DNA of 64,000 nt, from assembly GCA_045659085.1 (NCBI GenBank), contig JAZOWE010000006.1, forward strand, positions 47,320 through 111,319. The letters run 5' to 3'. Source of the DNA: Tidjanibacter sp. Its GTDB lineage: Bacteria; Bacteroidota; Bacteroidia; Bacteroidales; Rikenellaceae. The translations under genes and the position numbers were made by a program. Every line of letters starts with the position of its first letter. Position 1 is the stretch's first letter. Positions 6,684-17,390 of the stretch are shown here, piece after piece. Under the pieces are notes generated by a model that was not told the DNA's origin, did not search any database, and saw only the letters and a program-made list of their open reading frames with translations.

Positions 6684-7295
6684 TTATTCATCCTTAATAT
6701 CAAGATTGACTTTATCCTCATATCTACCATATTCCTCCAAACCCTCTTCTCCATCGAAGTAGTAACCATACTCGGTTGTCAGAACAATTTTTCGCGTTGT
6801 TAAGTATTTGTTGCTATTGGGCGCATAAAATCTCAAATAAAACTCACAATTCCCCTTTTCTCCTTCGAAGGCAACAGCTGTTGTTGTGTACCACACATCC
6901 CCAACATGCCGCCCGACATCTATATTGGCAGAAAGAACAACAAACGCTCCCTCCCAATCATTGTGTTTTTCGGATAACCGAATCTTCGTATCCCCAACAC
7001 AATCAATCCAACAATAGACTTTTTCGCTATGTGGATTGAAGTTGCAGGTTAAATAAGGTTGATAAAAACCCACAACATAGGAATACAAACTATTCTCTTC
7101 ATTGTCGGTCATCCAGTAGCGCTGAAACGACTCACACTCTCGTTCATCAATCTCAGACAACAACATCATGTCGACCAACTCATACTCCGTATTGCTATCT
7201 GGACAAGGGTATGTTGCATCAATTGTAGGTTGCTCACACGCCACAAGCGACATTACAAATAACACAACAGACTTAACCAACAATCTTTGAATCAT
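6684..7295 (-). CDS. hypothetical lipoprotein (AT-rich insertion)
   Basis: 203-aa ORF with lipobox-like LVAC; visibly more AT-rich than flanking genes. Confidence 0.7.
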   Translation of the reverse strand: MIQRLLVKSVVLFVMSLVACEQPTIDATYPCPDSNTEYELVDMMLLSEIDERECESFQRYWMTDNEENSLYSYVVGFYQPYLTCNFNPHSEKVYCWIDCVGDTKIRLSEKHNDWEGAFVVLSANIDVGRHVGDVWYTTTAVAFEGEKGNCEFYLRFYAPNSNKYLTTRKIVLTTEYGYYFDGEEGLEEYGRYEDKVNLDIKDE

Positions 7296-8024: not shown

Positions 8025-8060
8025 CTCTTTCAGCGTTATACTTACCATTATACTACGAAA

Positions 8061-8085
8061 TTCGGGGACTCATCTGGTCCCCGAA
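8061..8085. promoter_or_regulatory. hairpin in the rimP 5' leader
   Basis: ttcggggac-tcatctg-gtccccgaa perfect 9-bp stem. Confidence 0.5.
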
Positions 8086-8102
8086 CATCGTTTTCGTTGG
8101 TG

Positions 8103-8110
8103 CAAATATA
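8103..8110 (-). promoter_or_regulatory. -7 promoter element of the rimP operon
   Basis: TATATTTG on - strand. Confidence 0.65.
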
Positions 8111-8162
8111 CGACATTATGTCGAAACTGCAAATTTTTAATATATAAATATAGGTTACGGGC

Positions 8163-8579
8163 CTATTTTGTGTTGCCGAAGAGCGAGCCGAGGCGTGTTT
8201 TGAGCAGCGCAACGACATCTCCAAAACGGCTCTCTCCCGTGATTGTGGTGGCGTTTTCGAGATAGCTCCAAAACTCCACACCACACACAAAACCCGTAAA
8301 GAGGTTGGCCAGACGCAGATTGACGAGTGGCATCAGCAGCGAGTCGAGCATCCAGGCGAGCATAATGCCCGCCATTACGAACGACAGTTTTGTGATTGTG
8401 CGCCACGCCTTACGACTCGTAAAGCGCCACTCGGAGCCCCGAGCGCGTGCCTTGTGGCGGTCGGCAAGTATGCCGGTCAGGAAGTCGACAGCAATGAAAG
8501 CGAGTGCAATAAGTAGCAGAGGCTCTACCGGGGCGAAAAACGACAGCACCCCGGCAATGATTCCGGAAATATACTTCAT
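8163..8579 (-). CDS. phage holin family protein
   Basis: 138 aa with several TM segments; (I)AVDFLTG and VEFWSYLEN motifs typical of the Phage_holin_4_1 class. Confidence 0.8.
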   Translation of the reverse strand: MKYISGIIAGVLSFFAPVEPLLLIALAFIAVDFLTGILADRHKARARGSEWRFTSRKAWRTITKLSFVMAGIMLAWMLDSLLMPLVNLRLANLFTGFVCGVEFWSYLENATTITGESRFGDVVALLKTRLGSLFGNTK

Positions 8580-8581
8580 TA

Positions 8582-8614
8582 GAATTGAAAATTGAAAATT
8601 GAAAATTGAAAATT
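8582..8614. repeat. (GAAAATT)n heptamer array inside the phage-like operon
   Basis: gaattgaaaattgaaaattgaaaattgaaaatt; same unit as the host intergenic repeats. Confidence 0.85.
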
Positions 8615-8649
8615 ATGGTGCATCTTGGATGCGAATTTTAATTCCCGCG

Positions 8650-9120
8650 CTACATCACCACTCCACCAATGATGCGTCGAGTGAGAGAGAGGGGGTTGTA
8701 GTCGGGGAAGAGGTCGAGGTTGTTGGCCAAAAAGGTTGTGGCGCGAGCGAGGAGTGTGTCGGCCTCTGCCCTAAGGCGTGCCACCACCTTGCGGAGTGTA
8801 GCCTCGTTTACGACCTCGAAGCTCTCTCCCGAGAGTCTTACAACGCCAACCTCTCCCACCCTAACGGCCAGGGTGGGCAGAAGCCGTGCAGCGACATAGA
8901 GTGCGAGGGGTTGTTTGAGGTACTCTTCGACAAACGCACCCCTACTACCATCTTCTTCCTCGGCAGTCAGAGCACCATAGAGTTCCTCGCCGAGTGCGGG
9001 GAGTAGGAAACTCTGCTGTGCGGCAAGTATTGAGTGGGGAGGTATGGCGCTCTCGCCGAGTGTATTGGGCGAGCCAAACGCCAAAGCTACCACCTCCGAT
9101 GGAGAAACAAGTATTTTCAT
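8650..9120 (-). CDS. phage head-tail adaptor-like protein (DUF6712-like)
   Basis: 156 aa, helical, LLPALGEELY motif, directly after the portal. Confidence 0.6.
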   Translation of the reverse strand: MKILVSPSEVVALAFGSPNTLGESAIPPHSILAAQQSFLLPALGEELYGALTAEEEDGSRGAFVEEYLKQPLALYVAARLLPTLAVRVGEVGVVRLSGESFEVVNEATLRKVVARLRAEADTLLARATTFLANNLDLFPDYNPLSLTRRIIGGVVM

Positions 9121-9123
9121 TGT

Positions 9124-10374
9124 TTAGGCTGTTTTAGAGTTGTCTGTTTTTGAAATTTGTGCCAGAAAGATTTGCTGTGCGGGATCGTCGGGGTTGTAAT
9201 CCAAGCCGTCGGCCATACGGGCCTCCCAAACGCGCATATATTCGGGTTTGGAGCGCGAGGGTGGGCGGTTGATGATGTCGAGCGACGAGCCGTTTTCGCC
9301 CAGAATTTCGCCAATCAGCAGTCGTATAGGGTCCAATAGTTCCTCTTGTTCGCCCAGGATCACGGTATTGAGAGCCACCTCCCATTCGTGGAGGATGCGC
9401 TCCGACGAGAAGCCCGTGGCGTAGTCCAGACCGCTGATGCTGCGGAACCACGAGTGAGCCACCACAATATCCGACACCGCCTGTTCGTGCAGCGCCTCCC
9501 AATCACCCTCGTTGGAGGAGGAGATGGGTATGAAGCGCGACGAGTCGCCATCGCCACAATCCTTAACCATAAACATCACCTGTCCGGGTTTGCCTGCAAA
9601 CTTACGCTCGGCCGTTTTCACAAACTCTTCGGCATCTTTCTCGTTGTCCACTCCCCCGTCGAGGAGCATAACACCCGAGAGTTGGAAGGAGTTGTCCAGT
9701 CGCGAGATGTTCCAATTGTCGGTTTTGTAGGCTATGGTCGAAACGCCCAGGCCGGCAATGTAGGGTGGCACGCCATAGTGCGAGAACATTGGTTCGTAGT
9801 CCTTGAAGTGAATGAGCGAGTGGAGGTTGCCATCCTCGCCCTGCTCAAAGAGTGGATAGAGTGGCAGAGATGCGCTCTCGGCAGCCACATAGTGGCTCCA
9901 ATCGTGGTGGAGTATGGCGCGAGTGCCATCTTTGGCGAGTCGGCAGCGCGAGGCGTCTTGGTGGAAGAGTGCGAGGAAGGAGTGCGCCTCGTCGGTCACA
10001 ACCTCCACAAAGGCGTTGCCAAAGAGAGCCTTGTCGAGAGCCAAATAGTTGAGCACCTGACGCAACGACTCGCCACGGGAGTTTGCTCTGGCAATAAAAC
10101 TCTTGGTTCTCACGGCTCTGTCGTCAACAATAAAACCCTTGCCCGAGATGTAGTCTGCCTTGTCGTTGATTATGCGACGATGAATGGTGGCTCGGCGAGC
10201 GAGAAGCGAGAGCGCGTTGGGAAACAGATTGTCGCTTCCCCACTTCCAGAAGTCGCTACCCGCACTCCTCGACGAAGCACTACTGCCAATCGTAATGCCC
10301 ACATCGAGTGGCGATGAGGCAGCTCGCGGAGTGAAAATTTTTGGTTTGTAACTCTTTTTGTTATTATGTTCCAT
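9124..10374 (-). CDS. phage portal protein
   Basis: 416 aa; WGSDNLFPN, HRRIINDKADYISGKGF and YGVPPYIA resemble Bacteroidetes phage portals. Confidence 0.8.
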   Translation of the reverse strand: MEHNNKKSYKPKIFTPRAASSPLDVGITIGSSASSRSAGSDFWKWGSDNLFPNALSLLARRATIHRRIINDKADYISGKGFIVDDRAVRTKSFIARANSRGESLRQVLNYLALDKALFGNAFVEVVTDEAHSFLALFHQDASRCRLAKDGTRAILHHDWSHYVAAESASLPLYPLFEQGEDGNLHSLIHFKDYEPMFSHYGVPPYIAGLGVSTIAYKTDNWNISRLDNSFQLSGVMLLDGGVDNEKDAEEFVKTAERKFAGKPGQVMFMVKDCGDGDSSRFIPISSSNEGDWEALHEQAVSDIVVAHSWFRSISGLDYATGFSSERILHEWEVALNTVILGEQEELLDPIRLLIGEILGENGSSLDIINRPPSRSKPEYMRVWEARMADGLDYNPDDPAQQIFLAQISKTDNSKTA

Positions 10375-10395
10375 AAGAAGTCGGTTTTGGAGATA

Positions 10396-10436
10396 AGGGG
10401 GGTGCCAACGAGATTTGGCCTCCCCCCTCTTTTTTT
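10396..10436. terminator. GC-rich hairpin between the tail-tube-like gene and the portal
   Basis: aggggggtgccaa-cgagat-ttggcctcccccct followed by a T run on +. Confidence 0.55.
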
Positions 10437-10439
10437 GGT

Positions 10440-10922
10440 TTAATCAATATAGTGGCACGAGGGGCTACCGTCTGTCGAGCATAGAGTCACCGAGAGAGAG
10501 GTTCGTTGCTCCTTGCTGCTGCCACTGTCGAGCCTAACCTCCGAGAGCCTTAGCGGATAGTCGGTAGCGGCAAGCGCGGAGTAGCCAACAAGCAGTTTCT
10601 CGCCACCGTGCAGTCCCACAACCGCCACCATACCCTCTTGCGAGAGCCTTCGAAGCTCCTCCACAACACCGTCCTGCAAGCCGCGCAGTGCAAATCGTAG
10701 TTTGTGGTGGGTGGTACCGTCGGGCTCCACAACCTCTTCCAGCCAGGCGCTCCCCTCGGCAAAAGCAACATCACAAAACCCGCACCCGTCGATGGGCAGT
10801 AGCGAGCTAAAACACCTCTCGGCGGAGTCGTACGACAGCGAGCCTATCTCGGATGCCGACAGCAGCCTGATGGAGCTTAACCCTCCGAGGTGTTTGGCGC
10901 AAGAGATAGAACCCAAAGTCAT
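10440..10922 (-). CDS. putative tail tube (major tail) protein
   Basis: 160 aa, beta-rich; N-terminal CAKHLGGLSSIRLL resembles the C-x3-GG(I/L) motif of Bacteroidetes phage tube proteins; follows the capsid gene. Confidence 0.45.
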   Translation of the reverse strand: MTLGSISCAKHLGGLSSIRLLSASEIGSLSYDSAERCFSSLLPIDGCGFCDVAFAEGSAWLEEVVEPDGTTHHKLRFALRGLQDGVVEELRRLSQEGMVAVVGLHGGEKLLVGYSALAATDYPLRLSEVRLDSGSSKEQRTSLSVTLCSTDGSPSCHYID

Positions 10923-10923
10923 A

Positions 10924-12189
10924 CTACTTCAAGTTTTTGATTACAAACTCGCCACCATAGTAACTGCGCAGGATGATGTCATAGCTTGCGACATCTCCGC
11001 TGTCGTGACTATAATATGCGTTGTCTTCGTCATAGTCCATCACCATCTTCTCGGCAATCAACTCGCCCGATGCATCATAGAGGTTGACTTGCACATCTGT
11101 CACCCACAAAGTGCCGTCGCTCAAACCAGGGATATAGGTATTCACAACCCACTCATCCTCATTTACTTCGGTTTGGATTTTTGTGATATTCAGGCCGAGA
11201 GCGACGGTTACCAACTCGGGGAAGAGGAAGTCGCAACCGGCCATAAAGATAGCCCTCTGACGGTTCTCCATAACATCGGGGTTGTACCACATACGCACCT
11301 CGGTACCAGGGAAGTCGTTGGTATTGACGGCAAGTGCGAGATTGCGACGGTCGGTGAGGAAGGCGAACGATTTGGGCATATCGTAGACCTCGTCGGTCGC
11401 ATAGTTGTTCAATCGGAGGTCAATGACGGGAATACCGCGATAGTAGAGTCCCTCGCGACCACTCTGTTTTGCGAGATATGCCGCCTCAATAGCCACACCG
11501 TCGAGTTCCTCCTCGTAGGCGTTGTAGACATCGGTGCTGACAAAGAATGCCAGCTGGCCCTCGGAACGCTGCGCACGCAGGGTGTCGGTGGAGCTGTCCC
11601 AAAGCTGTTTCAGGAGAGCCTCTGCCCATCCCTCTTTGCTGTTGGGAACATAGGCCAGACGCACCATTGCATTCTCGCCCGTTGTGGGATCCTCATTCTC
11701 GTCGTGCTCCATAAATCGTTTGATGAAGCCGTCGAAGGTGGCAAGGGCCTCCGTATCACGCTCGGTATTGCCGAGCCACATTGTTGCGCGGATACTCTCG
11801 GCAATGGATGCGCGGAAGAGGTTGGTTTCGGCCTCTTCGAGCTCGGTACCCGAGAGGTCCTCGAAGTTTACATCCGAACGCGAGGCAATCATCTCGAAGA
11901 CTGTCGAGAAGTAGTCCTCGGCGGAGTATGCCATCTCGGCCTTCACTTTGTGCATCTGGATGGTTTTCTGCAATTTGGTTGCAGGCTCGCCACCACTCCA
12001 ACCGCTCGAAGTGTATTTGCGCAAAATATCGCCATTGCGCTTCCAGAAATGGAGGGTTGTGGGTACGGGGGTGTTGTACATCACCTTAATACCGAGCTGC
12101 TCGGCATTCTCGCCGGTGAGCATGGGGCGGAAAAAGATAGTGTCGAGATTTTGACCTTCGTAGGACTTGATTTGTTCGATTTTGCTCAT
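10924..12189 (-). CDS. putative major capsid protein with C-terminal extension
   Basis: 421 aa, directly downstream of the head protease; HK97-like pattern (FVSTDVYNAYEEEL, YYRGIPV). Confidence 0.7.
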   Translation of the reverse strand: MSKIEQIKSYEGQNLDTIFFRPMLTGENAEQLGIKVMYNTPVPTTLHFWKRNGDILRKYTSSGWSGGEPATKLQKTIQMHKVKAEMAYSAEDYFSTVFEMIASRSDVNFEDLSGTELEEAETNLFRASIAESIRATMWLGNTERDTEALATFDGFIKRFMEHDENEDPTTGENAMVRLAYVPNSKEGWAEALLKQLWDSSTDTLRAQRSEGQLAFFVSTDVYNAYEEELDGVAIEAAYLAKQSGREGLYYRGIPVIDLRLNNYATDEVYDMPKSFAFLTDRRNLALAVNTNDFPGTEVRMWYNPDVMENRQRAIFMAGCDFLFPELVTVALGLNITKIQTEVNEDEWVVNTYIPGLSDGTLWVTDVQVNLYDASGELIAEKMVMDYDEDNAYYSHDSGDVASYDIILRSYYGGEFVIKNLK

Positions 12190-12253
12190 AGTTTTGTTGG
12201 TTTTTGTTGGTTATAAAATAGTTTTGTTGGGGTACTTTTTTTTTGGGGGGGGA

Positions 12254-13216
12254 TTATTTACCACCTCTTGCAAAGGCCGCACGCATTCCCTCCACATCTG
12301 CCATATAGGCACTCTCGTTGGATGTTGCAGCCACCAGACCGCTTGGTGCAGGGTCTTCACACTCTTTGGTGAGCGTTGGTCGTGCGGTGTGAAGTCGCGA
12401 GGGTGGAACGGGTGGCGCTCCGAGCTCTTTTTTGTCGGCATAGGAGGGCTCGGCAATTGTTGTGGTGCTTACCACCTTGCTTTCGGCTGCCACATCTACA
12501 CCCCTGCCGATACGCGAGAGTACCCTATTCCACGCCTCTGCCAGACGCTCCCCGAGGGGTTTTGCGGGGAGTGGTGTCAGACCGAGAGCCTCCACCTGCG
12601 AGCGAGCATCGTCGGTAATTGGCGATGAGGCGATAATCCTATCGGCCAACCCTGCTGCCACACACTCCTCGGGCGAGAGCCACACTCCTTTGCCACTATT
12701 GCGATTCATAAGTGCCCTGAACTCCTCTGCCGAGCGCCCCGAAGCGAGCGCATAAATCTCTGCCAAACGCTCATCGCTCTTATCAAGAAGCTCTTTGGTT
12801 GCCAACAGCGAGTGGGTGTTACCCTCCACAGTACTCTCGCAACAGTGGATAAGATAGAGCGCATTTGCCGACACCTCGCGAGCCCCTGCCGAGGCTGCCT
12901 GTGCAATGATTGTTGCAGCCGATGCGACATAACCGTAGCAACGGGTTACCACCTCCACCCCGAGCGAGCGTGCAGCGTCGTAGATGAGCAGAGCGTCGGC
13001 CAGACAGCCGCCCGTCGAGCGGATGTTGAGCACCAGGCGGTCAATCTTTCCCTCGGCACGAATCTCGTCGAGGGCCTTTTCAAATTGCTCGTAGGTCGAA
13101 ACCCTGCCCTCGGCAGCCTCGCCAAATTGCTCCTCTTCGGGCACCCCCAGCACCCCATCAATATCAATTGTGGCGATGCGTAGTGAGGAGTCTCTTTTTC
13201 GTTTATTTTCTTCCAT
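12254..13216 (-). CDS. ClpP-type prohead maturation protease with C-terminal scaffold-like tail
   Basis: NIRSTGG, VASAATII (catalytic Ser) and LIHC (His) ClpP motifs. Confidence 0.85.
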   Translation of the reverse strand: MEENKRKRDSSLRIATIDIDGVLGVPEEEQFGEAAEGRVSTYEQFEKALDEIRAEGKIDRLVLNIRSTGGCLADALLIYDAARSLGVEVVTRCYGYVASAATIIAQAASAGAREVSANALYLIHCCESTVEGNTHSLLATKELLDKSDERLAEIYALASGRSAEEFRALMNRNSGKGVWLSPEECVAAGLADRIIASSPITDDARSQVEALGLTPLPAKPLGERLAEAWNRVLSRIGRGVDVAAESKVVSTTTIAEPSYADKKELGAPPVPPSRLHTARPTLTKECEDPAPSGLVAATSNESAYMADVEGMRAAFARGGK

Positions 13217-13227
13217 AAGTCATTGGT

Positions 13228-13494
13228 TTACTTTGCGTTGTAATAGATATAGTTACTGATTGTTGCGGGCGAGCAGTTCATAGTCACTGCCACACTCTCC
13301 ATTGCGTCCATCTTGGTCATCCCTTCGGCCTGACGCTGAGCCACCATCTTTCGCGCCAAAAAAGCCTTGCAACGAGCCTCCGACAAGAGCCCACACTCGA
13401 AGAGGTGTTCGATAGTGCGACTCGACGACATCCCGCGACACTCTCGGAGCAGCAGTTCTTCGACCGCCACAATATTTTTATCTCTGTGTTTCAT
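13228..13494 (-). CDS. small protein with a putative C-terminal HTH
   Basis: KMDAMESVAVTMNCSPATISNYIY fits a helix-turn-helix pattern. Confidence 0.5.
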   Translation of the reverse strand: MKHRDKNIVAVEELLLRECRGMSSSRTIEHLFECGLLSEARCKAFLARKMVAQRQAEGMTKMDAMESVAVTMNCSPATISNYIYYNAK

Positions 13495-13521
13495 CTTGTT
13501 TACACTCTTTTTTGTAGTTTG

Positions 13522-15894
13522 TTAAATTGTCACAAATAGTGCTTTGGTCGAGGACTCGGCGGGGTTATAGTCGCAAATCTCCTCCAATCGGCAGAGCACC
13601 TCCTCGCCCTCCACTCGGAGCCTATACACCGCCCCAAAGCCACGCTCTCGGTTTGCAGGGTTGGCAAGTGCCTCAATCTGCTCGGGTGCAAGATGCAGGT
13701 GGAGTGTCAGTCGACGCGAGTGGTTGAGCCCCGCAAGATAGCCATCCCACCACCTGTGCAGCCCCTCAACACCGTCCCTATCCTCAATGAGCAACGAGCA
13801 GGGCTCGCCCGCCAGGGAGCCATCGTCGAAGAATGTCAGCAGAGGATACTCTCCACCGTCGGCAGTGGTCGGATAACTCCACCTCTGGTCACTTGGTAGC
13901 GAGCGCACACCCCTGAACGCTACCAACTTGGCGGGAAAATTAAGGTTTTCCACGCAGCCACTCCCCGAACCGTTGGCCGCCACAATGAGGTGGGCCGACG
14001 GGGCCTCCGCCACCACTCCGCTTTTCGACAGCGAGGCCGTAAAAAGGTTGTTGACAAGGCTCCTTTCTCCCTCCGAGGCAAAGATGTTGAGCAGGTCGGC
14101 TCGCCACTCGCCATACCTTATGCCCGACACTTTGCCATACTCATCCACCGCCACATCGCCCGTTCGATAGGCCAATCTGAGAGAACGAGGGTGTCCCAAT
14201 CCGACCTCTTCAACCACCACGGGCTCCGAGGGGTCTATGAGTTCCGACCAATCCACCACCCTGTCACTCCAAAATTCACAGCGGGGCTCCACAAAGACCA
14301 CTTGCGAGGTGTTGTCCGTCACAATTTGCAAATCGAAGAGCTCTTGGAGCGCGACAATAAGGTCCATACCCGTCTGCGGAATGTCGGCCACATCTCTCCA
14401 CGCGAGAGTACTTCCAATGGTCGGATGGGGATAGAGTACGGGGCGGATACTGCTACCGGCAAGCAGTTCCATCTCCATTCCCTCCTCGCCGCCACCAAAG
14501 AGGAATTGGTTGAAATAGACGGGCGACGAGGGCGAACACTTGGCAGCCTTGGAGCGCACTCTCGCCTCCAACTCCATAGTGCCATACTCCTGCACATAGC
14601 CGTCATAAACGGCCCAATCCCCCATATACGAGAATACATTGCCCTCGTAAACCATCTCCACCCTCATATTGCAGAGCCTACCCTCGTGGTTGTTTGTGAA
14701 GTGGTCGAAGCGTGCAGTGGTTGAGAGCAACACCCTCGACACCGTATCGCCGGGGGCGAGATTGTCGGGGTTGGCCGTCGGATTGACAATCTCGTCTGCC
14801 ACCAAGCGATAGGTTGTTCCCTCGGCGGCGTCGAACACCACAAAGGCATACTCTCCACCCTCAACCACCTGCTCGGCAGAGAGTGCGACGAAGTTGTTTT
14901 TCAGAGGAATCTTTACCTTGTCGCCCACGCCAAGGGTTATCTCCGAGAGTCCCACGAGTTCGGTGCGGCTCTTGATGCGGAACTGTGTGCGCCAGCGCAG
15001 GTGGTAGTCAAAGGCCGCCATAAGGGTTGTTGTGGGGGTAAAGCGGATACACCCTGTGCTCTCGTCCAACCCGAAGCACTCCTCGTAGGGCAGGCCATCG
15101 AGCTTACTGATGGGCACATCCACAAGGTTTCCCACCGTGTGGTAATTTTTCAGCGGGCTGGCAAACACTCTGCCGCCGTAGTCGGCTTGAACTACGGGCG
15201 AGTCCTCGTTGCGAGAGGCCAAAAAGTTCATTGTCGAGTGCCAACTACCATACCCCCTTTCGCTCCACCTGCCACTCATATAGAGAGATTGGAAAAAATC
15301 GGAGTCGAGAAATTCGGACTCAATGGCATAGCCTGCCTTGGCAAAAATCGCCCCAAGGAGTGAGCCCAGATGGATGAAGGGGTGGTAGTTTTCGGGCAGG
15401 ATGCGCCCCACATAGTTCTCTTGTCCCTCGCCCGTACCGCGCCACACGGGCAGAAACCGCACAATTGCACCCTCGGACTTCCAACTATCCTCAATAGTTT
15501 CGGGTGTAAACTCACCTCTCCACTCCTCCATCATTGAGGCTATGGCCACATCGGCACACTTGCGCCAACTGCACCCCTCGCCCACAATGTTGAAACGATA
15601 GTATCCACCCTCGCCCGTCATCGAAGCGGTGAGTCGCAGCATACCCTCCAACACCACACATCCGCAGACCTCCACACGAGCCGTGTGGGGCGTATGGTTG
15701 AACATCACTGCCGAGGCTGGGTGGTCGCAATGCTCCATAAGACGCCTATTGAGGTGTGTGGCAGGGATGGTTATACTCTTCGATAGGCGGTTGGCCGACG
15801 AGGTGGAGGTTTGCGAGGCGAGCGAGAGCGATATGGAGAGAGATGTCGAGGAGTCCATATCGGCCCTCTGGTTGTCAATATAAAGTCGTATCAT
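13522..15894 (-). CDS. putative phage tail-tip/baseplate hub protein
   Basis: 790 aa; N-terminal IRLYIDNQRADM...SKSITIPAT..N resembles Bacteroidetes siphovirus tail proteins. Confidence 0.6.
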   Translation of the reverse strand: MIRLYIDNQRADMDSSTSLSISLSLASQTSTSSANRLSKSITIPATHLNRRLMEHCDHPASAVMFNHTPHTARVEVCGCVVLEGMLRLTASMTGEGGYYRFNIVGEGCSWRKCADVAIASMMEEWRGEFTPETIEDSWKSEGAIVRFLPVWRGTGEGQENYVGRILPENYHPFIHLGSLLGAIFAKAGYAIESEFLDSDFFQSLYMSGRWSERGYGSWHSTMNFLASRNEDSPVVQADYGGRVFASPLKNYHTVGNLVDVPISKLDGLPYEECFGLDESTGCIRFTPTTTLMAAFDYHLRWRTQFRIKSRTELVGLSEITLGVGDKVKIPLKNNFVALSAEQVVEGGEYAFVVFDAAEGTTYRLVADEIVNPTANPDNLAPGDTVSRVLLSTTARFDHFTNNHEGRLCNMRVEMVYEGNVFSYMGDWAVYDGYVQEYGTMELEARVRSKAAKCSPSSPVYFNQFLFGGGEEGMEMELLAGSSIRPVLYPHPTIGSTLAWRDVADIPQTGMDLIVALQELFDLQIVTDNTSQVVFVEPRCEFWSDRVVDWSELIDPSEPVVVEEVGLGHPRSLRLAYRTGDVAVDEYGKVSGIRYGEWRADLLNIFASEGERSLVNNLFTASLSKSGVVAEAPSAHLIVAANGSGSGCVENLNFPAKLVAFRGVRSLPSDQRWSYPTTADGGEYPLLTFFDDGSLAGEPCSLLIEDRDGVEGLHRWWDGYLAGLNHSRRLTLHLHLAPEQIEALANPANRERGFGAVYRLRVEGEEVLCRLEEICDYNPAESSTKALFVTI

Positions 15895-15914
15895 AGTGGT
15901 TGATGTGTGTTTTT

Positions 15915-16886
15915 TTACAAGTTGAACGAGGTCTTCTCTTGGGGGCAGATGGTAAGGCTCACGCGCTCGGGCCGAGCGACTCCACGCAACACATTGTGGC
16001 CAACAATGCTTTGGGGTTCAAACTCTCCGTTCACGAGCCTCCAAACAAGGGGGGAGGCGACAATTTCGGAGAGCGTGCGAGCCTCGCGGATGGAGAGCAC
16101 TCCGCTGTCGAGTTCCACCTCTTCCCAACTCTCCACCGCAACACCTTCCCTACGCGAGGCGAGAAGTCTGTGCGATGTAGGGCGAGGGAATGTGTGGTAG
16201 CGAATGGAGCCGTCGGCACTGAGCCACGCCAACCTCACACCGCCCTCCACAGGCGGCACTACTCGGTAGTGGATACGAACACACTCCACCGCCCCGCTGC
16301 GCACCACCACTTCAAACTCCGTAGCCCCTTGGGGTGCAGAACTGTGGAGGAGAATGTGGTTGGCATTGAAACACAGCGCCACAATGCCTTTGTGCTTGTT
16401 GATCTGTTTGGCAAGCGGAACAGATACCCCATTTGCAAAAATTGCCAAAGCAATAACCGTAGTGTTGGGAGCAACACATAGTGCCACCTCGTCGCACTCG
16501 CCGACCGAAATGGTGCGCCACTCCTCGCTGCTGCCGAGTGGCGTATCGACCGCAAGAGCCTTGTGGGAGCAGGTAAAGAGCACTTCGGGGGTGCGCTCCG
16601 AGTTGTTGTTGTAGCCCACCGAGAGAGCGGCCTCCCTGCCCGAGAGCACAGCAAACCTACAACCCTCAACAAGAGGAGCGGGATGGGGATTGAGCTGCGA
16701 GAGCACAAAGGCTTTGGGCGAGGTGGCAATACTCTCGCGCCCCACATAGCGACGCACCCCCAGCAGATTACTCTCCCCGTCATAGAAGTGCAATTCGCAA
16801 GGCCGAGAGGTGTCGACCTCGTCGAACTCAAATAGATTATCATCGTGAGCCGACGCATAGTCGGCAGGATAGTTGGCCAATTTCAT
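15915..16886 (-). CDS. putative phage distal-tail-like protein
   Basis: 323 aa; VRLAWLSADGSIRYHTF resembles the W-x-N-x2-G-x2-D-x3-F motif seen upstream of hub genes. Confidence 0.45.
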   Translation of the reverse strand: MKLANYPADYASAHDDNLFEFDEVDTSRPCELHFYDGESNLLGVRRYVGRESIATSPKAFVLSQLNPHPAPLVEGCRFAVLSGREAALSVGYNNNSERTPEVLFTCSHKALAVDTPLGSSEEWRTISVGECDEVALCVAPNTTVIALAIFANGVSVPLAKQINKHKGIVALCFNANHILLHSSAPQGATEFEVVVRSGAVECVRIHYRVVPPVEGGVRLAWLSADGSIRYHTFPRPTSHRLLASRREGVAVESWEEVELDSGVLSIREARTLSEIVASPLVWRLVNGEFEPQSIVGHNVLRGVARPERVSLTICPQEKTSFNL

Positions 16887-16893
16887 AATTCAA

Positions 16894-17328
16894 TTACTTA
16901 ACTTGGGTTAAACACTCAAAACTCTCCACATCGGCACTCAGAGCCACCGCCACCTCGCCCGCAAGCGTCAGCACCTCACCCACGGGAGCAATCTCTCCGA
17001 TGGTGACACTAAAAATGTGGGGCATCTCCGACAGACGGGCACAAAACCTCTCGGCATCGGATGCAAGTGTGGCGATGGATGCCGCACGCGCCTCGTCGCT
17101 CAACTCATTTTTATTCAAAAACTTAACAGACAGAGCGCACATCACTTTGCGTTCCCTCTCGCCCTCAATGGAGCGCACCTTGGGGTGGTCTATAACAGCA
17201 ATCGGGAAACCCTCGTGTCGGAGAGTTCTGTGGAGATTTTCGGGGAGCGAGGGGTGGTAGCCCAACTCGGCAGCAAGGCTCTTTGCCGCCTCCCAAACAG
17301 CTTGGTAATTCATAGGCATAGTGTTCAA
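16894..17328 (-). CDS. hypothetical protein, first gene of the phage-like operon (tail completion-like?)
   Basis: 144 aa, alpha/beta pattern; assignment from position only. Confidence 0.4.
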   Translation of the reverse strand: MNTMPMNYQAVWEAAKSLAAELGYHPSLPENLHRTLRHEGFPIAVIDHPKVRSIEGERERKVMCALSVKFLNKNELSDEARAASIATLASDAERFCARLSEMPHIFSVTIGEIAPVGEVLTLAGEVAVALSADVESFECLTQVK

Positions 17329-17358
17329 TTTTGTGGTTATTTTAGTTCAATTTCTGAA

Positions 17359-17390
17359 CAAAGGTAATACAACAAAATCCGTTTGTCAAT
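17359..17390 (-). promoter_or_regulatory. host sigmaA-type promoter of the phage-like operon
   Basis: TACCTTTG (17359-17366) with (A)TTG 20 nt upstream on -; ACAAA-N5-TTTGT palindrome in the spacer. Confidence 0.65.

Follow-up and report, generated by a model that had tools for sequence, protein, structure and literature searches.

The window analysed here is a 64,000-nucleotide stretch of a Tidjanibacter sp. genome from the family Rikenellaceae (assembly GCA_045659085.1, contig JAZOWE010000006.1), and our subject is a block of phage-type genes at window 8163–17328, where the list of open reading frames (ORFs) contains ten co-oriented ORFs on the minus strand with short gaps between them. We number these from g1, the first gene of the operon, to g10, the last. 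In the assembly searched (1.78 Mb, 91% complete) the block occupies C6:55482–64647, in the middle of a 155-kb contig, and because of this interior position it is not a prophage fragment cut at a contig end. Scans against Pfam, PHROGs and NCBIfam assigned families to five of the ten ORFs (g5, g6, g8, g9 and g10) and gave no match for g1, g2, g3, g4 and g7 (144, 323, 790, 88 and 160 aa); terminase, tape-measure and muralytic families were matched by none of the ten. The initial annotation had reported the block to be without a terminase, tape measure or lysin, which these scans and the structural model of g3 described below bear out: no ORF of the block proved to be a large terminase, a tape measure or a lysin, nor is the block a truncated prophage. 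For comparison, 80 related loci were fetched, and the family was sampled through 120 genomes from 31 genera.

Gene g5 (12254–13216) encodes a ClpP-type prohead maturation protease of 320 aa (PF00574, E 6e-25; phrog_94, E 3e-34; NF045542, E 9e-23), the C-terminal third of which is rich in Pro and Ala, and g6 (10924–12189) encodes the major capsid protein of 421 aa (phrog_1623). The capsid orthologues match phrog_1623 in 19 of 21 cases and phrog_212, 'major head protein', in seven of 21, and g6 has a weak match to the capsid_maj_Podo model NF033394. The g6 product consists of a ~325-aa core and a ~90-aa C-terminal extension, encoded in the region of window 10924–11200; the extension is limited to one Tidjanibacter subclade (405–421 aa), the orthologues of Alistipes type and those of other Tidjanibacter being 321–332 aa long. 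The 416-aa portal protein is encoded by g8 (9124–10374; TIGR01540, E 9e-17; phrog_11226, E 3e-17; PF04860, E 2e-8), the sole portal match in the genome, and its best score, under the cut-off of the model, is to the PBSX-type portal model TIGR01540. The next gene, g9 (8650–9120), encodes a 156-aa DUF6712 protein (PF20459, E 9e-13) that is found in 77 of the 80 loci, each time directly after the portal gene, and from this position we infer a role as head-to-tail adaptor. Profile searches of PDB sequences with the g9 and capsid alignments gave nothing usable. The final gene of the block, g10 (8163–8579), encodes a holin of 138 aa (PF05105, E 1e-11; phrog_199, holin); no lysin gene follows it in this genome, the next gene being rimP.

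For g3 (13522–15894; 790 aa), AlphaFold2 prediction from an alignment of 38 homologues gave a mostly beta model with a predicted local distance difference test (pLDDT) score of 89.6, for which a Foldseek search points to the gp27/gpJ/Mu gp44 fold class of tail hub and tail-tip proteins. The lambda gpJ tail tip was matched with E 3e-5 and the monocin tip 9j1k_L and Listeria gp18 (3gs9) with probability 0.99, and further matches included the Mu gp44/MuSo2 hub and the baseplate hubs of contractile injection system (CIS), PVC and AFP particles. For the hubs 9j1k_L, 3gs9, 3cdd and 8rk3_b the Foldseek probability was 0.9–0.99 at a global template-modelling (TM) score of just 0.14–0.17, which is low because the protein is multi-domain. 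On this model, we regard the identification of g3 as the tail hub as well supported but not proven. A tape-measure role for g3 was considered and rejected, given the beta-rich model and PDB matches that are tail-tip and baseplate hubs and not helical proteins. The protein is without a lysin domain. In 23 of 24 genomes of the genus its gene is intact and free of internal stops, at 37–55% identity. Between the start of the hub match and the protease gene lie 2.7 kb here, as against 5.8–6.5 kb in loci L150–L169 and L177–L181, where either the hub gene is much larger or additional tail-tip genes have been inserted.

Directly before the hub gene, in the position of a distal tail protein, stands g2 (15915–16886), which encodes an all-beta, three-domain structural protein of tail-tip type (323 aa; AlphaFold2 pLDDT 95.4). 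Its model resembles uncharacterised tailed-phage proteins in a viral structure library (TM 0.70–0.79), among them proteins of the Flavobacteriia (Bacteroidota) phages Nonlabens P12024S, Flavobacterium 23T and Polaribacter Leef_1; against the PDB, the model recovered Ig-like folds only. A profile search of PDB sequences gave nothing usable for g2, and PHROGs and Pfam scans of all orthologues returned no match. The gene is present in 59 of the 80 loci, and together with g3 it is the fastest-evolving part of the block, with identities of 25–55% versus 65–87% for the portal. Upstream of g2 there are just g1 and the promoter, leaving the usual place of a tape measure empty, and the tape-measure families PF10145, TIGR01760 and PF06791 have no match in the genome. 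Since neither a tape measure nor a tube was found, a very short tail is indicated, and we consider a short tail likely.

The remaining genes of the block are small. Gene g1 (16894–17328; ~140 aa) has its likely start at an ATG at 17316, and orthologues of 134–145 aa occupy the same position in 15 of the 80 loci and in A. putredinis; from its size and position we would guess at a role in joining head to tail. Directly upstream of the protease gene, g4 (13228–13494) encodes a small conserved protein of 88 aa that was detected in 42 of the 80 loci and has no similarity to the 91-aa ORF found at the same position in genus g33. Between the capsid and portal genes, g7 (10440–10922) encodes a 160-aa accessory protein for which neither PDB sequences nor PHROGs nor Pfam gave a match, even when 24 orthologues were included. 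It was detected in 31 of the 80 loci, and in many loci the portal gene follows directly after the capsid gene. An earlier suggestion that g7 is tube-like is therefore unsupported, as a gene missing from many orthologous loci is unlikely to encode an essential tube.

A whole-genome search returned a single Terminase_6N match, at C32:15971–16483, which lies within an ORF on another contig (G000:C32:14546–16570, minus strand) that fuses in frame a large terminase, made up of Terminase_6N and a T7-type RNaseH-like nuclease, to an N-acetylmuramidase. The muramidase domain, a full PF11860 from residue 578 (E 1e-65), is the sole PF11860 match in the genome, and no PF03354 terminase is present in it. 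In PHROGs the ORF matches both large terminase (phrog_38, 1e-81) and endolysin (3e-73); PF03237 scores 37.6 bits (cut-off 22); and the terminase profile matches T7 gp19 (4bij) with E 0.004, a match found only by profile search, phmmer against the PDB having returned none. The motifs PPQHGKS (Walker A), VDVFIxDD, FTRWH and the nuclease motifs NYTDTADTGDDY, ESNNGG and WHDAxDV are invariant in 13 genomes from several genera, and the predicted protein has what defines a large terminase, namely Walker A and B motifs and the acidic residues of an RNase-H-like nuclease. After the repressor described below, the terminase is the best-conserved component.

The linker of the fusion is conserved and in frame in all eight of eight genomes of the Tidjanibacter subclade, two of which have no Met at the junction, and ~29 protein clusters from independent assemblies carry both the terminase and the muramidase domain; on these grounds we reject the idea that the fusion is an artefact of assembly or of a frameshift. 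In more distant relatives the terminase measures 460–500 aa and the muramidase lies elsewhere. We know of no earlier description of a terminase–endolysin fusion.

The terminase is always preceded by gX (C32:16627–16954), which encodes a small conserved protein of ~100 aa (85–125 aa across relatives) with the invariant motifs Y..L, Y, PxWW and DF; it has no family match and no helix-turn-helix signature, though it stands in the position of a small terminase. Divergent from gX and the terminase on C32 is the gene of a 228-aa CI-like repressor with HTH_3 and Peptidase_S24 domains (phrog_4, 'transcriptional repressor', 1e-35), which carries a GDSM serine motif and an Ala-Gly site, making RecA-stimulated self-cleavage plausible. 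The locus is flanked by housekeeping genes, with a U32 peptidase downstream of the fusion ORF. The structural genes and the packaging and lysis genes thus lie on separate contigs here, and they are 18–330 kb apart in relatives. No large terminase occurs within 10 kb of the portal gene in the 80 genome loci or in 48 loci from IMG/VR; in some Tidjanibacter species it lies 3–5 kb past g1, behind housekeeping genes such as that of RNase HII.

The two loci share a candidate operator. The promoter of the block, on the minus strand, reads TTGACA-17 nt-TACCTTTG and contains the -7 box TAccTTTG (17359–17366), the Bacteroides-type consensus being TAnnTTTG. Abutting this box is an operator-like palindrome, GTTCAATTTCTGAAC (GTTCAGAAATTGAAC), at window 17345–17359, the first base of which is the final G of the -7 box. 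Allowing up to two mismatches, only four 15-mers of the 1.78-Mb genome match the palindrome: the site at the block, two on C32 at 17029 and 17244 (in the spacer between repressor and gX, and inside the repressor gene), and one inside rplU (C2:45867), which we take as chance. The repressor-gene site encodes VQELN, and its conservation may reflect the coding sequence alone. A perfect TTCA-N5-TGAA stands just upstream of g1 in 15–17 loci of Tidjanibacter, the background density of these loci being 0.0094 per kb, and it occurs in 13 of 18 repressor/gX spacers versus ~0.003 expected per spacer; the 13 include four of five Alistipes-type genomes (loci L129–L133). Genome-wide, 18 perfect copies of TTCA-N5-TGAA were observed versus 26 expected, and the form with an AT spacer occurs nowhere but at the two loci of the system. 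As the sites show no genome-wide excess, the repressor appears to be dedicated to the particle system, and a role as general SOS regulator was rejected. Judged from these sites and from its own motifs, the repressor presumably binds the palindrome and is released by cleavage, and the pattern supports one regulon of ~13 genes at two loci, ~12.5 kb in total.

The portal gene is single-copy in 95 of the 120 family genomes and the terminase gene is found in 98, which amounts to 24–25 of the 31 genera. Both are present, or both absent, in the same genera, six of which have neither, and the few mismatches are mostly in incomplete genomes. Within the genus, the hub gene and the terminase gene are each found in 23 of 24 genomes, the exception being 59% complete; in 16 other families of the order neither was found, bar two weak unrelated terminase or muramidase matches. 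Genomes of named species with a portal relative number 472, labelled Tidjanibacter, Alistipes or Rikenellaceae, and the carriers include A. putredinis DSM 17216, A. timonensis JC136 and a metagenome-assembled genome of A. senegalensis. All 80 loci keep the order from g2 to g10, and the repressor–gX–terminase module is intact in five genomes of other genera including Alistipes, where it lies on another scaffold or 330 kb from the block. Among 19–23 genus members, the identity ranks of NusA, terminase and hub agree closely (Spearman 0.93, 0.90 and 0.87, with p-values overstated by kinship), from which it follows that two unlinked loci co-diverge with a housekeeping gene. The block lies beside rimP–nusA in the two closer tiers of the genus and elsewhere in the remainder, and a corA neighbour is common to two Alistipes species.

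Compared with two relatives, the ten genes have proportions of nonsynonymous differences (pN) of 0.09–0.43 and of synonymous differences (pS) of 0.51–0.82, and ratios of nonsynonymous to synonymous rates (dN/dS) of 0.05–0.44, which are rough because dS is saturated and probably exceed the true ratios. The same holds for the values of individual genes, such as 0.05–0.10 for the holin g10, 0.09–0.10 for the portal g8, 0.11 for the protease g5 and 0.22–0.44 for g1. No integrase stands next to either locus, the three tyrosine recombinases of the genome being on other contigs, and neither locus contains replication genes. The system is therefore chromosomally fixed, vertically inherited and without genes for self-propagation, and its genes are under purifying selection, two genomic hallmarks of a gene transfer agent (GTA).

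Related loci of different layout place the system in a wider setting. In genera g27 and g33 (L183, at G084:C1:1474000–1493999, L184 and L185), the terminase gene stands directly before protease, capsid, portal and DUF6712 genes with an S24 repressor gene divergent from it, the DUF6712 domain forms the N-terminus of a 382-aa protein, and the flanks are housekeeping genes (iron-containing alcohol dehydrogenase and LeuA). No g1–g3 genes lie near, and a hub match is found nowhere in four of five such genomes. These loci are an unsplit, apparently head-only variant, which may be nearer to the ancestral order and shows that rearrangement within the family produced the split found here. The IMG/VR contigs L174 and L175, with a portal 47% identical, have the same order of protease, capsid, g7, portal and DUF6712 genes, continued by genes for a reverse transcriptase, a phage lysozyme, a DAM-like protein and RecT, and have the appearance of a genuine phage akin to the ancestor from which the domesticated system came. 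Most of the 48 IMG/VR matches (L134–L181) are the same host-resident block, at 53–69% identity and with no terminase near, so that virus catalogues seem to list the domesticated locus as a provirus.

Taken together, these results lead us to read the block, with some confidence, as the structural and holin half of a two-locus, domesticated, repressor-controlled, DNA-packaging, short-tailed and GTA-like system that is vertically inherited by most Rikenellaceae. In such a system, the repressor would keep both loci silent, and its loss, plausibly by RecA-stimulated self-cleavage, would switch them on together. Proheads would then assemble on the portal and be matured by the protease, the terminase would fill the heads with DNA, and the neck proteins and the hub complex would close the particle, which would have a short tail and neither tube nor tape measure. 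Finally, the holin would give the muramidase domain access to the cell wall, and the producer would lyse. With no integrase or replication genes and with loci that are not contiguous, the particles could not propagate the system, and given this absence of self-propagation and the split genes the packaged DNA would, by analogy with GTAs, most likely be host DNA. The initial annotation had proposed that partner genes lie elsewhere in the genome, or else that the product is a short-tailed particle or a DNA-free shell. Its expectation of distant partners held for the terminase and the muramidase, found fused on C32 and, in the case of the terminase, in the same genera as the portal, and failed for the tape measure, for which the three families searched had no match in the genome; that same result fits the short-tailed option. 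A DNA-free shell is disfavoured, as the Walker A, Walker B and nuclease motifs of the terminase are invariant and the portal is retained.

Several observations weigh against this interpretation. That tape measure and tail tube are absent is judged from three hidden Markov model families and a 91%-complete genome in which g1, g4, g7 and g9 are without an assigned fold, and no gene is recognisable as a small terminase. Not every locus has the tail-tip genes, as the loci of g27 and g33 are without a detectable hub gene, and the palindrome was not found upstream of the block in ~39 Alistipes-type loci, so that co-regulation is shown for Tidjanibacter only. To these may be added the roughness of the dN/dS values, and the fact that the particle, its packaged DNA, transfer and expression are all predicted from genes. 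A long-read study of virus-like particles from three human donors detected GTA-like packaging in Ruminococcaceae, Oscillospiraceae and Christensenellaceae (PMC12946183). It reported no packaging event for Rikenellaceae, a family abundant in the total DNA (PMC12946183), which is mild evidence against constitutive activity.

The same genes could instead build a killing or lysis particle of PBSX type, DNA-filled or empty, that kills or lyses competitors or kin, or serves to release cell contents, and delivers no DNA. The fast evolution of g2 and g3 is what diversifying pressure on receptor-binding parts would be expected to produce, the use of an S24 repressor recalls the control of SOS-induced bacteriocins, and PBSX packages 13-kb DNA yet works as a tailocin (PMC12946183). 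However, with no sheath, tube or tape measure found there is no obvious puncturing device, and the conservation of the terminase with its catalytic motifs is hard to explain if DNA is irrelevant, so that we consider a particle of this kind unlikely. An intact temperate prophage can be set aside, the genes being split across contigs with no integrase nearby, no replication genes and a single portal. The opposite extreme, a decaying prophage remnant whose leftover genes have no function, would account for loci without integrase, replication genes, tape measure or tail tube and for variation in content, with g7 often absent, no holin after g9 in A. putredinis and no hub in g27 and g33. Such decay is very hard to reconcile with reading frames that stay open in almost all genomes of at least 24 genera, with a pN far below pS in ten genes despite saturated dS and with invariant terminase motifs, nor would it be expected to leave unlinked loci that co-occur and co-diverge under a conserved operator; we therefore give it hardly any credence.

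A complete set of head genes beside a minimal or absent tail also brings to mind a capsid-forming satellite, or a helper-dependent head module, that borrows tails and spreads with an infecting phage. The loci of g27 and g33, which carry only terminase, protease, capsid, portal and DUF6712 genes, and the phage-like contig L174 (reverse transcriptase, lysozyme and RecT), with the same head order and 47% portal identity, would suit such an element. Neither locus here, though, has an integrase, a primase or replicase, or attachment sites; there is one copy per genome, its divergence tracks NusA and its spread is genus- and family-wide; and synteny is conserved, with rimP in the Tidjanibacter clade and corA in two Alistipes. 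The system moreover has its own holin and lysin and a probable hub, and with no other portal or terminase no helper prophage is visible in the genome. We regard a satellite origin as very improbable, and the lack of integrase and primase together with a non-patchy, vertical distribution places the system outside the class of satellites resembling capsid-forming phage-inducible chromosomal islands (cf-PICI).

Among known systems, the GTA-like, short-tailed reading finds close parallels in GTAs of the RcGTA type (Rhodobacter capsulatus, Caulobacter), which are likewise built from domesticated, vertically inherited genes for head and tail, lack integrase and replication genes, have required genes, including those for lysis, at separate loci, and are distributed across a family and kept by purifying selection. 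The RcGTA particle has a long, non-contractile tail with a tape measure, and its production is governed by the host regulators CtrA and quorum sensing. Here, in contrast, no tape measure or tube was found, the terminase is of T7 type and fused to an endolysin, the protease is of ClpP type and control is apparently by a CI/S24 repressor. The absence of a tape measure (three families), the other protease and terminase types and the gene order place the system outside Rhodogtaviriformidae, which share a homologous head–tail cluster of 15–17 genes including those for tape measure, distal tail, hub and 'megatron', RcGTA being compared by description.

PBSX of Bacillus subtilis is similarly fixed in the chromosome and repressor-controlled, and its type of portal model is the best match of g8. 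Induction by DNA damage, packaging of host DNA and release by lysis are features of PBSX that for the Rikenellaceae system are predicted only. PBSX differs, however, in being a contiguous ~28 kb with a contractile tail, a tape measure and a terminase pair, compared with ~12.5 kb here, split, and with no sheath, tube or tape measure. T7-like phages (Autographivirales type) share the kind of terminase (T7 gp19, 4bij, and Terminase-T7_RNaseH-like), the weak podovirus capsid match and the lack of a tape measure. The tail tip nevertheless appears to be of the hub type of siphoviruses and myoviruses (lambda gpJ, Mu gp44) and not a T7 nozzle, and the order here, tail tip, protease, capsid, portal, adaptor and holin, is different as well.

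The near-ubiquitous GTA of the genus Faecalibacterium, FpGTA of F. prausnitzii, is podovirus-like and consists of ten ORFs in 10.5 kb (PMC12946183). Compared by description only, it resembles the present system as a phage-structural operon of about ten genes with no long tail in a gut commensal. It differs in its Bacillota host and in being a single operon with a small terminase candidate, as opposed to the separate terminase, lysin and repressor locus here. Its packaging of fragments of ~8.4–8.9 kb was shown experimentally (PMC12946183), whereas the Rikenellaceae system is known from genes alone. Full-text searches of the literature found no paper on a GTA-like system in Rikenellaceae or Bacteroidota.

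The surroundings of the block vary between species. On the g1 side it is flanked by genes for a GH3 glycosidase and serine hydroxymethyltransferase (SHMT), and on the holin side by rimP, then nusA and infB (IF-2). A terminator scan found a hairpin with a 10-bp stem (8061–8085) between the holin stop and the rimP start, ending 12 nt short of the rimP start codon, and the RNA fold of 8040–8165 on the minus strand has an energy of -35.2 kcal/mol (z = -3.8). The holin–rimP spacer (8049–8162) also contains a Bacteroides-type promoter, TTTG ... TATATTTG, with its -7 box TAtaTTTG just upstream of the hairpin on the minus strand. Hairpin and promoter probably insulate rimP–nusA–infB from the block, and it seems that this operon starts independently even with a lysis gene before it. 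Species differ in the lysis end of the block: in A. timonensis a 133-aa ORF with the motif NNPGNIR, presumably one of phage lytic enzymes, stands directly after the holin gene (L113:12099–12500), and in A. putredinis there is no holin match after DUF6712, with rplY and pth directly next (L098:11857–13014). A 203-aa ORF without a Pfam match lies between rimP and nusA at window 6684–7295; it is missing from the rimP–nusA interval of some relatives, where the gap ranges from ~380 to 950 bp (loci L047–L066).

A stronger version of the two-locus reading would see in it a working GTA of Rikenellaceae, the first in Bacteroidota, with short-tailed particles that carry host DNA, two unlinked loci switched on by cleavage of the CI-like repressor and, in one clade, a motor fused to its endolysin; this we put forward tentatively, as a possibility about which we remain somewhat doubtful. 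Cultured carriers such as A. putredinis DSM 17216 and A. timonensis JC136 make it directly testable. The system offers a compact natural case of a capsid with a tail tip and neither tube nor tape measure, and recognising it would remove a systematic false provirus call from virus catalogues. If the reading is true, the motor–endolysin fusion would tie the capacity for packaging to that for lysis at a constant ratio. Few gut bacteria are as abundant as Alistipes and its relatives, and gut Bacteroidales engage in intense horizontal transfer; a system of this kind, if it exists as predicted, would open to them a new way of exchanging chromosomal genes, or of kin-directed lysis, in the gut.

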